Source: Candidatus Heimdallarchaeota archaeon (lineage in GTDB: Archaea; Asgardarchaeota; Heimdallarchaeia; JABLTI01). From it: 11,563 nucleotides of DNA. The notes beneath the pieces were generated by a model that saw only the letters and a program-made list of their open reading frames with translations, was not told where the DNA came from and made no database searches. The DNA lies in contig JAHLVW010000049.1 of the NCBI GenBank assembly GCA_019058275.1, positions 1 through 11,563 on the forward strand. Reading direction: 5' to 3'. This document shows, piece by piece, positions 1-7,642 of the stretch (position 1 is its first letter; the number at the start of each line of letters is the position of its first letter). A program made the position numbers and the translations under genes.

Positions 1-347
1 CATTAATAACAAACAAAAGACTTCCAGAATATTCACCTTGGGGCTCCCTTCGGTATAAAATCCCGTTGCGGGTTAATAGGGGATGTAGATTATGGGAGCA
101 TCTCCAGGTTAAAATTTGAGTTTCCTTTAGATAATCTTGGGATACTTGTACAACTTGATCTAGGAATGCCATTCAGGATAAATTATTTTTCTCCTGCAGA
201 AAATAATTTATTTTTTTATCCTGTTTCCTGTAATGATTTTTTCCCTTAAGTTGCTCGAATCTCAATATTAACTCATTATTTTTCCTTATATAATTTATGT
301 AATAATTACAACGAGAGAAAAAAGTCTCTGTTGATAAATTTAGAAGG
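1..347 (+). ncRNA. Structured repeat unit U1 (divergent subtype; left end cut by window)
   Basis: P1 stem GGGGCTCCC...GGGAGC (~40-99). Rod arms TTGGGAT/ATCTCAA, CAACTT/AAGTTG, CAGGATAAA/TTTATCCTG. Right end ATTAACTC...TATATAATTTATG shared with U3, U4, U7; ends in the 22-bp site. Transcription and strand are inferred from G-U bias. Confidence 0.6.
326..347 (+). repeat. 22-bp right-boundary site, copy 1 of 7
   Basis: CTCTGTTGATAAATTTAGAAGG; other copies at 1717, 2196, 4721, 5477, 5616, 9471. Confidence 0.85.
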
Positions 348-780: not shown

Positions 781-786
781 GCTCAC

Positions 787-895
787 TTTAGATTTTAAAG
801 CTCAAGATTAATAACAAACAAAAGGCTAGAAGAATATATGCCTGGGTGCTCCCTTCCGAATAAAATCCTGTTGCGGTTAAAAGGGAATGAAGATT
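787..895 (+). repeat. Left part of interrupted unit U3
   Basis: Palindrome variant, then GATTAATAACAAACAAAAG and GGGTGCTCCC plus loop. Similarity to U1/U5 stops after ...GAAGATT, just before the 3' strand of P1. Confidence 0.8.
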
Positions 896-917
896 CAGTC
901 ACTAAAAAGTCCCTCCA

Positions 918-1415
918 TTAATAATATGCCCATCTCTCAGCGTATGCTGTTTCTTTCTCTAAATCAAGGAATTCCAAGTATGGCTCCTCACCAACATCCC
1001 CACCAAGAACTATGAATGTAGGTCTGATTCTTACAATAATCATCCCTGGAAAATTCTCCCAAAGTGCGATCGACTCAGGAAACTTCTTTCGCAGTATATC
1101 TGTATATTTTCTATTATTGTCATTTGTGAGGTTTCCCAATATCTCAGCTATCCCTTCTATTTGTACTCTATCTTTACACAAAGCAACACGGGGATTCATC
1201 TGAATTTGTATAGCTTTTCGCGAGTGTCCCCAGGTAAAGAAGTAAATTTCGAGTTCATTATTAGCAATCAACACGTTTCGTGCAAGAACTTTGTTGTTAT
1301 GAGAGGTTGCAAGCACCATTATGCTATTGTCTTTTAATTCCAAGAATTTTATTAGCTCCTCTTTTTTCTTTACATAATCGAGTTCCCATTTAGTCTTTTC
1401 TTTCTTGTTATCCAT
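918..1415 (-). CDS. Pyridoxamine 5'-phosphate oxidase-like FMN-binding split-barrel protein
   Basis: 165 aa with motifs MVLATS, IYFFT..HSRK..QI..NPRVALC and VQIEG.AEI; SD-like GAGGAGAG upstream. Confidence 0.85.
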   Translation of the reverse strand: MDNKKEKTKWELDYVKKKEELIKFLELKDNSIMVLATSHNNKVLARNVLIANNELEIYFFTWGHSRKAIQIQMNPRVALCKDRVQIEGIAEILGNLTNDNNRKYTDILRKKFPESIALWENFPGMIIVRIRPTFIVLGGDVGEEPYLEFLDLEKETAYAERWAYY

Positions 1416-1428
1416 TTTTTCACTCTCC

Positions 1429-1563
1429 TCAAATCTTAGATATGCCTGTAAAATATAATCTTGGCTTTCTTGGAATTAATCCTACTAAAAATTTGATGAA
1501 CCCTATAAGAGCTATAATTGTTATTATTATTACCCCTGCTATTAAAATATCATTCCAATTCAT
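1429..1563 (-). CDS. Small single-pass membrane peptide, 44 aa (not in ORF track)
   Basis: MNWNDILIAGVIIITIIALIGFIKFLVGLIPRKPRLYFTGISKI*; its stop abuts the SD of 918-1415. Confidence 0.55.
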   Translation of the reverse strand: MNWNDILIAGVIIITIIALIGFIKFLVGLIPRKPRLYFTGISKI

Positions 1564-1607
1564 TGTTAGTTTCTGATATACTTTGAATTAATCACTTATT
1601 TAAAGTA

Positions 1608-1738
1608 ATCTGTTTTTCTGCATATTATTTTTTTCCTACAAGTTGCTCGAATCCTCATATTAACTCCTTATTATTCCCTATATAATTTATGAAGCAACTT
1701 ACACAAGTGTAAGAAATTCTGTTGGGATAGTTAGAAGA
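1608..1738 (+). repeat. Right part of interrupted unit U3, including 22-bp site (1717-1738)
   Basis: AAGTTGCTCGAATC..ATATTAACTC..TATATAATTTATG matches U1 ~248-299. Confidence 0.8.
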
Positions 1739-4720: not shown

Positions 4721-4742
4721 TTCTGTTGGTAAATTTAGAAGA
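4721..4742 (+). repeat. Stand-alone 22-bp site
   Basis: TTCTGTTGGTAAATTTAGAAGA. Confidence 0.8.
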
Positions 4743-5476: not shown

Positions 5477-5498
5477 TTCTGTTGATAAATTTAGAAGG
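5477..5498 (+). repeat. Stand-alone 22-bp site
   Basis: TTCTGTTGATAAATTTAGAAGG, 21/22 identical to 326-347. Confidence 0.85.
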
Positions 5499-5615: not shown

Positions 5616-5790
5616 TTCTGTTGGGATAGTTAGAAGAAATGCAAGCACGAAAAGAAGATTTGAAGTTTGCAATTGAAAATAACATTGCTTTGCTCCAGCA
5701 ATGCATCCCTGGGTAACAGGTCTATGAACTGATAATTCAATGATTTTTAGCTAATAAATTACTGACTTTAGATTTTAAAGCTTAAAATTT
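5616..5790 (+). repeat. 22-bp site plus linker, direct repeat of 1717-1892
   Basis: Similarity begins exactly at TTCTGTTGGGATAGTTAGAAGA. Confidence 0.9.
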
Positions 5791-6221
5791 AATACAAAAG
5801 TAAAGAAAGTATATTTGAGCTTGGGTGCTCCCTTCAGAATAAAATCCTGTTGCAGTGGAATAGGGGATGAAGATTGTGGGAGCATACCCAGGACAAAGTT
5901 TGAGTTTCTTTAGGGTCTCATACGTGGGGATTATTCCATGCATATCTTTATTGAAGACACACTACTCGTAAAAAGAATTTTTCGGGAGGGTGATAGATAT
6001 CCTTTTCCGGTAGTAGGTTGCTCCTCAAAGATATACCGAATCCCCATAGTAACTCTTCTTTCACGCTTTTATTTTTTTTGAAGATACATTCATCTAGTAT
6101 AGCGGTTTTTATTGAAAGAATTTTAACCATATCTTGAGAAAAAAAGCTCTAGAAACTGATTTTTGCCAATGGACTACGGAAAAAGAAGGATTAGTTGTCA
6201 AGAGAATGTTGGAATTCGCAA
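5767..6221 (+). ncRNA. Structured repeat unit U5 (subtype A) plus tail
   Basis: P1 5823-5889, rod ~5926-6045, oligo-T ~6067-6079; tail to 6221 shared with U6. Confidence 0.7.
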
Positions 6222-6438
6222 CATTCTTTCTTAACTACAACATCATCACTAACTATGAATTATTATTTCTATGTATTAAGAGACTTGAAATTAATTGAAC
6301 TATTAGGAGAAGGTTAAAAAACACCTTTAGGACATACTAAAAAGCATTACAAAATAATTAAAAGTAAGGTAAACGATAAAATGTGGGATAATCCATAAAA
6401 ATACCTTAAAGAAATATTCTCTTAGGGCAGTCAAATAT

Positions 6439-7620
6439 GTGCAGAGTAAGACAAAATATTATGAAGAAAAAGAAACCAAGTACATAGAAGCTAAGTGTAA
6501 TGTATGTAACAAGAAAAGAGATTTTGCTGAAGTAGATGAGAAAAAGGAATATACAAGAGGAATACCAAGAAAAAAAGCACATTGGATTTGTAATAGTTGT
6601 AAACGAAAAATTAAAAGAAAAGAATTATGGGAAAAAGTAAAGGGTTTCATGCAAGCATCAAGAATTCAAACTGCACCATTTGCTGCAGCAGTAATTTATA
6701 TGGCTTATTTAAGTGGACTAGACAAACAAATGTGGTTAAATATTATATTACCTTTTCTTGGTGGATTAGTTCATATGGTTGGTTGTATTCATAATTCTAT
6801 TATTGATACTGTTATGGGATATGATACAAAAGATAGTAATAAAGTTCATGGCTATACAACTGGTGTTTTAGATGCCAAAAAACACAAAAAAATGATTAAT
6901 TGGATTATACTTGTTTTTGCTGTTATATTGTCTATTATTGGGGTTTTTGGAGCTAATAATATATTATCTCTTTTAGGAATTATCTTTTTAGTAGTTGGTG
7001 GTTATGTTTACAATAATATTTCAAAACAAACTTATTTTGGATTTATTCCAATCGGAGTATCTTATGCTGGAATGGTTCTTTATGGTTTTTCATTAAGTCA
7101 TAGTACAGTTCTTTTAATTGATTTATTTCCATTGATAATTTATGTTATGGCAGTAACAATGATTCAAATAGCTTTCTGGGGTGAATTAAAAGACATGGAA
7201 TATGATGAGAAAAGTTTGGTCAAAAAATTAGGTGTAAAGTTAGAAAATAATTATTTAACAATTACAAAGAAATTTGATATTATGTACTTTACTTTTCGAG
7301 CATTAAGTTTATCACCATTAATAGTTTACATGGTTTTAACTCATGACCCCAATCATATCATTCAAACGGTTCATTTATCATTATGGATGTTTGTTTTTGT
7401 ATTAATTGCATTTTGGTTAAACACAAAAATCTTTCAATTTAAAGAGTGGAATAGAAGAAAGATTTTTCTATACATTAATTTTAGTGAATTTTTGTTTATT
7501 TTTCTTATGTTTCCATTCTTCATTAAATGGTGGATAGTATTTGTAATACTTCCAGTAAGTGTTGGATTATGGATAGGATTAAATAAATTACTTTGGGATG
7601 ATTATGTGCAAAAAACTTAA
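6439..7620 (+). CDS. UbiA-superfamily prenyltransferase with N-terminal CxxC...CxxC zinc ribbon
   Basis: Multi-TM protein; Asp motifs HNSIIDTVMGYD and ELKDMEYD, plus YVYNNISK; CNVC and CNSC at the N-terminus. Start is uncertain (frame open from 6373). Confidence 0.8.
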   Translation: MQSKTKYYEEKETKYIEAKCNVCNKKRDFAEVDEKKEYTRGIPRKKAHWICNSCKRKIKRKELWEKVKGFMQASRIQTAPFAAAVIYMAYLSGLDKQMWLNIILPFLGGLVHMVGCIHNSIIDTVMGYDTKDSNKVHGYTTGVLDAKKHKKMINWIILVFAVILSIIGVFGANNILSLLGIIFLVVGGYVYNNISKQTYFGFIPIGVSYAGMVLYGFSLSHSTVLLIDLFPLIIYVMAVTMIQIAFWGELKDMEYDEKSLVKKLGVKLENNYLTITKKFDIMYFTFRALSLSPLIVYMVLTHDPNHIIQTVHLSLWMFVFVLIAFWLNTKIFQFKEWNRRKIFLYINFSEFLFIFLMFPFFIKWWIVFVILPVSVGLWIGLNKLLWDDYVQKT

Positions 7621-7642
7621 AAAAATATTTAAAATAATAGGA

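Follow-up and report, generated by a model that had tools for sequence, protein, structure and literature searches.

A conserved long-hairpin rod in a modular non-coding unit of a Heimdallarchaeota cassette array

Known hairpin elements and the array that carries the rod

ERIC, BOX and Correia/NEMIS elements are bacterial imperfect palindromes of ~120-150 bp that are modular or mosaic in build, are co-transcribed, are able to alter transcript stability, and lie dispersed through the genome as independent insertions. The attC sites of integrons are imperfect palindromes of ~60-140 nt that stand in co-oriented arrays and whose fold is conserved more than their sequence (PMC2727003, PMC4889954). 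Here we describe a long hairpin, the rod, which is the best-conserved part of a previously undescribed repeated unit in a cassette array of a Heimdallarchaeota genome; our searches of the literature on Asgard mobile elements and integrons gave no such unit, and a term search of PMC8813620 turned up no mention of one.

The window, meaning the whole stretch of DNA that was analysed, is the complete 11,563-bp contig C39 of a genome bin of 4.1 Mb (118 contigs, 32% G+C) and carries 7-8 co-oriented copies of the modular unit interspersed with small cargo genes. Because further units or sites lie on the small contigs C24, C27, C49, C37 and C4 and at the edges of C117 and C42, we regard these contigs as one fragmented array region, which holds about a dozen units of three diverged lineages (A, B and U1-type) with shuffled modules. 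The neighbours of the units are accessory genes (a toxin-antitoxin-like pair, a NERD-NACHT protein, acetyltransferases, a TnpB-like protein and two CRISPR mini-arrays), the cargo genes lie mostly on the - strand, and the cargo differs among the genomes G000, G004, G005 and G007 and the metagenome contigs. No tRNA, rRNA or Rfam RNA anchor was found on the assembled array contigs. Units were detected with a 5'-domain covariance model in only four of the 12 genomes of the family, all belonging to one genus, and BLAST of 41 relatives recovered the same four; the unit is thus accessory, being carried by some species of the genus only. Pattern scans of public genome and metagenome collections added only three metagenome contigs, and the public relatives with the element are annotated as Candidatus Heimdallarchaeota or Promethearchaeati bins.

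Several genes and repeats of the array region were recorded alongside the units. Contig C4 (L091) carries two CRISPR mini-arrays (1-269 and 2125-2465, ~4 repeats each, with a 37-nt repeat) at 1.8 kb from a 22-bp joint site, as if they were cargo of the same array. Similarity to the CRISPR repeats of the genome was considered as well and dropped, as it came down to a 9-mer in common. On contig C27 (L086), a TnpB-like protein of 543 aa with a Cas12f1-like TNB domain is encoded on the - strand at 7401-9032, ~5.6 kb from a U1-type unit and without an adjoining unit module. On contig C42 (L087), an HTH-Peptidase_M78 and DUF4411 gene pair and a gene for a NERD-NACHT protein of more than 1,399 aa (313-1949 and 5802-9998) adjoin joint sites, a content that is defence-island-like. 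In the window, a gene for an FG-GAP/VCBS-repeat beta-propeller protein with an N-terminal membrane anchor (10576-11562) follows directly after the last cassette and continues past the contig end. U1-type units are the main component of the array in G004, where contig L079 carries three of them in succession at ~1.5-kb spacing, with 1-2 small ORFs between.

A unit spans ~330 bp. It opens with a promoter-like, AT-rich palindrome that includes a TATA-like box, after which come a 5' domain that a long-range stem closes, the rod as a 114-129 nt hairpin, and an AT-rich tail of one of three kinds; a 22-bp site with an A-rich run behind it usually follows. At either side the unit has a TATA-like box that faces inward, the one in the left palindrome on the + strand and TTATATAA on the - strand, and A-type units terminate in a T8-10 run on the + strand. 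The start of unit U1 is missing, cut off by the contig end; its 5' domain, which model R1 matches at 25-145 with 129.9 bits, is closed by a long-range stem of 36-48 with 94-108 that encloses a small hairpin, and TTATATAA at 286-293 is the TATA-like box of its tail, 20-21 nt from the rod base and with an A-rich BRE-like flank on its - strand side. The unit is non-coding: no ORF of at least 18 aa is common to the unit types on either strand, and 1-nt indels shift the frames. A small - strand protein gene in the rod, considered for an SD-like box and an ATG at the base, was rejected since its frame is not conserved: in the C24 copy a stop closes it 3 codons after the ATG, and between units 402 and 5765 the frame shifts. 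Nor was a conserved toxin ORF of the type I toxin-antitoxin kind found across the unit types. No Rfam 15 family reached its gathering score in the window or in seven other array stretches, the sole hit in the window being a chance-level match to snoZ162 (25 bits where 45 is the gathering score, E 0.32).

In the following list of features, R2 is a covariance model built only from 13 U1-type rods (27 pairs), for which unrelated sequence gives a full-length background of ~13 bits (one 14.0-bit match is only partial), and R3 is a sequence-only model of the same alignment.

1-136, + strand: leader, 5' domain and linker of U1 (alignments A1/A2, consensus fold)
137-265, + strand: U1 rod (arms; fold z -3.4; 12 homologues in alignment A3; R2 128.2 bits)
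137-143/259-265, 146-148/256-258 and 151-158/246-253: base helix, 3-bp helix and helix 2 of the U1 rod, followed by the middle and the variable apex (~183-223)
266-325, + strand: tail of the TATA-bearing kind (repeat families D2, D15 and D17; conserved in tail copies)
326-346, + strand: 22-bp joint site and A-rich run, the one element that every cassette joint shares
562-679, + strand: subtype A rod in unit 402-790 (R2 20.4 bits, full length)
1589-1654, + strand: U1-type remnant of apex and 3' arm in the split unit (R3 19.2 bits, model positions 47-120)
2020-2134, + strand: subtype B rod in unit 1868-2222 (R2 11.8 bits, full length)
5926-6045, + strand: subtype A rod in unit 5765-6150 (R2 10.6 bits)
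8782-8900, + strand: subtype A rod in unit 8621-9010 (R2 11.2 bits)
9297-9410, + strand: subtype B rod in unit 9145-9497 (R2 17.5 bits)

Like the rods, integron attC sites are imperfect palindromes that stand in co-oriented cassette arrays and combine a variable centre with a conserved base; the rods also fit the length and centre of attC sites (57-141 nt, variable centre), the apex being their most variable part. However, the rod fails two defining features of attC, the core motifs and the occurrence of one site per cassette boundary. The core boxes R'' (RYYYAAC) and R' (GTTRRRY) are absent from the rod base TTGGGAT/ATCTCAA; GTACAAC and GTTGCTC of an inner helix fit the boxes at 6/7 and 5/7 positions, but their place is 13 nt inward of the base and the A and B rods lack them. 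The joint between cassettes is a separate 22-bp site, several joints being rod-less, and the rod is part of a larger unit that has a 5' domain as well as promoter-like and terminator-like signals of its own, in an archaeal host. Six matches to PF00589 were found in the genome, none of them on C39, C24, C27, C49, C37 or C4, and the searched ends of C117 and C42 likewise contained no tyrosine recombinase by this criterion; as the array is fragmented, the search covers only some of its ends. Two paralogous tyrosine recombinases of ~310 aa were noted at contig edges of G000 (C5:3-659 and C9:20141-21046), with relatives in G004, G007 and G009. A link between these enzymes and the array was rejected, since they are present in three of the four genomes with units and also in one without a detected unit (p ~0.09), and no unit- or site-bearing contig carries them.

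The bridge RNA of IS110 elements shares with the unit a constant structured scaffold with variable internal parts in the non-coding DNA of mobile regions. It differs in that no complementarity between a variable loop and the joint is established here, the 8-mer common to rod base and joint not being significant. The IS110 (DEDD) recombinase, PF01548, has 0 matches in the genome, which is 92.8% complete, while control genomes score, and the reverse transcriptase PF00078 also has 0 matches in the genome. Because these enzymes are missing from the genome, the rod is neither an IS110 bridge RNA nor a retron msr-msd RNA. In contrast to the dispersed ERIC, BOX and Correia elements, the rod stands at one fixed position of the unit and in one array region: BLAST of the genome found rod copies only inside units on C39, C24 and C27, and the A and B rods are likewise confined to units. 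The rod is therefore not a dispersed palindromic repeat.

The U1 rod, its subtype and its relation to the A and B rods

A rod had been predicted at 137-265 from four pairs of complementary arms, and all four are present at those positions. TTGGGAT (137-143) pairs with ATCTCAA (259-265) in the base helix and CAACTTGA (151-158) with TTAAGTTG (246-253) in helix 2, with one G.U pair each, and they are followed by CAGGATAAA (174-182) with TTTATCCTG (215-223) and by AAATTATTTT (180-189) with AAAATAATTT (200-209). Since CAGGATAAA and AAATTATTTT have three A's in common, these arms cannot all pair at once; in the minimum-energy fold the upper rod is closed by TTTCCTG at 224-230 instead. As + strand RNA, 137-265 folds into a single unbranched rod of -29.8 kcal/mol and is more stable than its dinucleotide shuffles (z -3.42; mean -18.9 +/- 3.2 for 200 shuffles, one of which was as good). 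The - strand RNA reaches -25.6 (z -2.75), and as single-stranded DNA the z scores are -2.5 (+) and -2.3 (-); the whole U1 unit folds weakly (z -1.4 on + and -0.5 on -). Two further statements of the original prediction are also borne out, namely that GAAGACACACTAC and AAAGATATAC are absent from U1 137-265 (each occurs five times in the window, in units 402, 1868, 5765, 8621 and 9145) and that subtype A has equivalent arms, GGGATT/AATCCC, GAAGA/TCTTC and CTAC/GTAG among them.

U1 is a member of a subtype and not a one-off. Full U1-type rods number 13 and come from four Heimdallarchaeota genome bins of one genus and two metagenome contigs; beyond the window, BLAST and the 5'-domain covariance model placed U1-type units on two contigs of this genome, C24 and C27, and in three more genomes of the genus, and three of the 13 rods come from a metagenome pattern scan. 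The U1-type rods are 77-98% identical to one another, and all 13 fold better than shuffles on the + strand (z -2.1 to -5.9). Mean pairwise identity is 87-89% in the lower rod arms, 80% in the 5' domain, 73% in the apex and 67% in the tail, making the lower arms the best-conserved stretch of the unit and the apex the least-conserved part of the rod. The AT-rich apical helix is found only in U1 and two G004 copies, and partly in one G007 copy, the remaining U1-type copies having a 3-nt deletion and a different apex, and the middle of the U1-type rod has two alternative pairing registers, CATT/AATG and AATCC/GGATT. Covariation within the type was considered as proof of structure and rejected: 94.7% of cells pair, but shuffled controls are equally good, and the comparison is uninformative because the paired columns hardly vary.

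The U1 rod had been described as different from the others in sequence and the same in fold, a conservation of shape taken to imply selection on structure. Structural alignment of U1 to the other rods succeeds, for R2 matches all ten A and B rods over model positions 1-122, at the correct coordinates and on the + strand. Six of the ten score 17-25 bits (E 2e-5 to 0.008), which is above background, and the other four 6.7-11.8 bits, which is within it; R3 gives 5.5-14 bits on the same rods in partial matches of the 3' arm only, and structure adds 5-12 bits over sequence in these cross-type matches. The difference in sequence, on the other hand, was overstated. Homology between U1-type and A/B rods extends over the rod base, the greater part of the 3' arm and portions of the 5' arm, 19 rods of all types are colinear in MAFFT with 65% column identity, and identity between rod types is ~55-65%; with the shared base removed, same-orientation local alignments still give z 3-7, centred on the upper 3' arm. 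This homology indicates that U1 is a diverged homologue and not an independent solution. Descent of the U1 rod from an inverted A/B copy was rejected, as same-orientation alignments score above inverted ones in most pairs.

As for selection on structure, the claim holds up in part. In the R2 alignment all eight pairs of helix 2 are kept in both types and six of the eight have changed on both sides, and in B rods one helix 2 pair runs through the series T-A, C.A and C-G over three copies; this series and the two pairing registers in the middle of U1-type rods are lesser signs in the same direction. This compensation across types speaks for selection on pairing, but it is read from an alignment fitted to the structure, and covariation within the U1-type is no better than in shuffles. 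On a sequence-only cross-type alignment RNAalifold finds no common fold, the helices being one or two bases out of step, and for this reason the compensatory reading rests on the structure-fitted alignment. We conclude that the U1-type and A/B rods diverged from a common ancestor, probably with compensatory change in the paired arms.

Reduced rods occur in two forms. In a B-type unit on C24 (L088, 4930-5203, - strand), a natural deletion of the upper rod, the hairpin is precisely cut to its base and helix 2 (~45 nt). The split unit of the window (786-1737) consists of a head (786-897), cargo with a PNPOx-like gene on the - strand (918-1415, with a Pfam PNPOx_N match), and a tail with site that extends to 1737, so that a 44-aa membrane peptide and the PNPOx-like gene take the place of the rod's 5' arm. 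As the same half rod, tail and site recur on an unrelated metagenome contig (L066, reverse strand, ~1588-2206), the split unit is a stable cassette form. Units that persist with a mini-rod or half rod imply that the full rod is not needed for persistence of the unit.

Joint site, strand and competing explanations

The 22-bp site occurs seven times in the window (326-346, 1717-1737, 2196-2216, 4721-4741, 5477-5497, 5616-5636 and 9471-9491), is weakly dyad, and marks a boundary, the similarity of copies stopping a few bases past it. It is also present on C24, C49, C37, C4 and C42 and in the unit carriers G004, G005 and G007, and is absent from G009 and G010, which are without units; the co-oriented sites listed number 41, and a reversed control pattern gave 0 matches. 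Stand-alone sites share an extra TAACTA...AAGAA stretch with the tail end, and, taken with ~20 nt upstream, the joint site looks like the last part of the tail of the unit itself. Joints with the site and without a rod lie at 4721 and 5477 of the window and on C37, C42 and C4. That the joint site arose by copying the 5' base of the rod was rejected: one core class resembles this base, but the 8-mer they have in common lacks significance (140 of 2000 shuffles).

Strand was assessed by comparing the 5' arm with the reverse complement of the 3' arm under a strand-neutral score and counting G.U-type transition mismatches for each strand. The counts for + and - were 46 and 49 in U1-type rods, 14 and 47 in A/B rods, and 43 and 11 in the 5' domain; base composition does not account for them, and summed over all regions (103 vs 107) they show no net strand bias. 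The folds of A/B rods overall reach z -4 to -5 on the - strand and about -1 to -1.7 on the + strand. A-type rods are about at shuffle level on + (z -0.8 to -1.7) and stable on - (z -4.1 to -4.7), a gap that comes mostly from an upper helix formed only on the - strand, and nearly every pair shared by the two strands is Watson-Crick. The whole unit at 5765-6150 (U6) gives z -1.59 on + and -3.15 on -. The flip in wobble bias, with + favoured in the 5' domain, - in the A/B rods and neither in the U1-type rods, suggests convergent transcripts or two functions.

The explanation we favour, at about even odds (a probability near 0.5), is that the long-hairpin rod is a structurally constrained domain of an accessory non-coding RNA unit in the cassette array and is recognised by its shape; transcription of the unit, its strand and any role of the rod are what we infer beyond the fold, the homologues and the array context. 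The rod may instead be a cis-acting part of a transcript, either the 5'-terminal hairpin of a - strand transcript or, together with oligo-T, an insulator of adjacent cassettes against read-through, which is the strongest of the alternatives and in our view still unlikely. A start directed by TTATATAA, with its A-rich flank on the - side 20-21 nt away, would fall on the first pairs of the rod, and the - strand is the one on which most cargo genes lie and on which the A/B rods and the whole U6 unit fold better; the A-rich run after the 22-bp sites is oligo-T on that strand, and A-type units end in T8-10 on the + strand. Yet the cargo of the split unit has its own TTTAAATA box nearer the start codon, so that the tail promoter is not needed there, the U1-type rods are without a - strand preference, and the 5' domain favours the + strand. 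Termination in archaea, moreover, needs oligo-T and not hairpins.

Somewhat less probable again is an action of the rod as DNA, in the form of a hairpin or cruciform, extruded from one strand, that a recombinase would recognise by shape, in the manner of attC, in order to shift cassettes or change their order. In its favour, the rods are imperfect palindromes of 114-129 nt that stand in a co-oriented array, their base conserved and their centre variable, the single-stranded DNA folds of both strands beat their shuffles (z -2.5 and -2.3), and the summed G.U counts (103 vs 107) are balanced between strands. The homology of copies, however, breaks at the 22-bp site and not at the rod base; many joints (4721 and 5477 in the window, and those of C37 and C42) have the site and no rod, the rod always lies inside a larger conserved unit, its base arms are without the attC core motifs, no tyrosine recombinase was found on the array contigs and contig ends searched, and units survive with truncated rods. 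It is improbable, to a degree beyond either of these, that the fold is under no selection at all and that the rod is a relic palindrome, for example an old foldback insertion, in young copies that spread through duplication or transfer and were homogenised by gene conversion among paralogues. Such a history would agree with the covariation within the type, which is not above shuffles, with the 77-98% identity of copies within a type, with the narrow distribution and the existence of rod-less variants, and with the mosaics of modules among units, which point to frequent recombination between them. It agrees poorly with rod types that stand at ~55-65% identity and yet each have an 8-bp helix 2 without a mismatch and, in the same position, a long fold without branches, with the gain of 5-12 bits from structure in cross-type matches, and with an apex that has diverged much more than the arms of the same copies, a difference that the age of the copies cannot explain.

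A further reading, as doubtful as that of a relic, builds on two convergent, structured and partly complementary RNAs, one from the + strand with the 5' domain, which would start at the left palindrome, and one from the - strand, which would start from the tail TATA box and run from the rod base. The A, B and U1-type lineages would then be specificity types of a recognition system based on RNA that controls or guides cassette capture, immunity or exchange at the 22-bp site.

Proposed role of the rod and its meaning

In the favoured interpretation as a domain of an accessory RNA, 137-265 would be this contig's copy of a distinct conserved rod subtype in a modular non-coding unit. The U1-type and A/B rods would go back to a common ancestor from which the base helix and 3' arm have kept recognisable sequence, while the 5' arm and helix 2 probably changed together with pairing preserved and the apex was free to vary. 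Selection on pairing in a single-stranded nucleic acid would hold the lower two-thirds of the hairpin. That nucleic acid is most likely RNA transcribed from the unit, in which the rod may act as a shape-recognised scaffold or as a stabilising stem of an accessory RNA tied to the array.

The U1 rod by itself is a supporting piece and not a stand-alone discovery. The three diverged lineages with one fold offer a natural series of variants on which probing and binding could be studied. Should the unit be an RNA with a shape under selection, it would be a new RNA family and a handle on how the array works; if it folds as DNA, it would represent an integron-like mechanism made from different parts. 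Among known prokaryotes, Heimdall-group archaea stand closest to eukaryotes, and very little is known of their non-coding RNAs and of how they collect accessory genes; should the scheme of two convergent RNAs be true, the array would be an RNA-programmed counterpart of the integron in these close archaeal relatives of eukaryotes.
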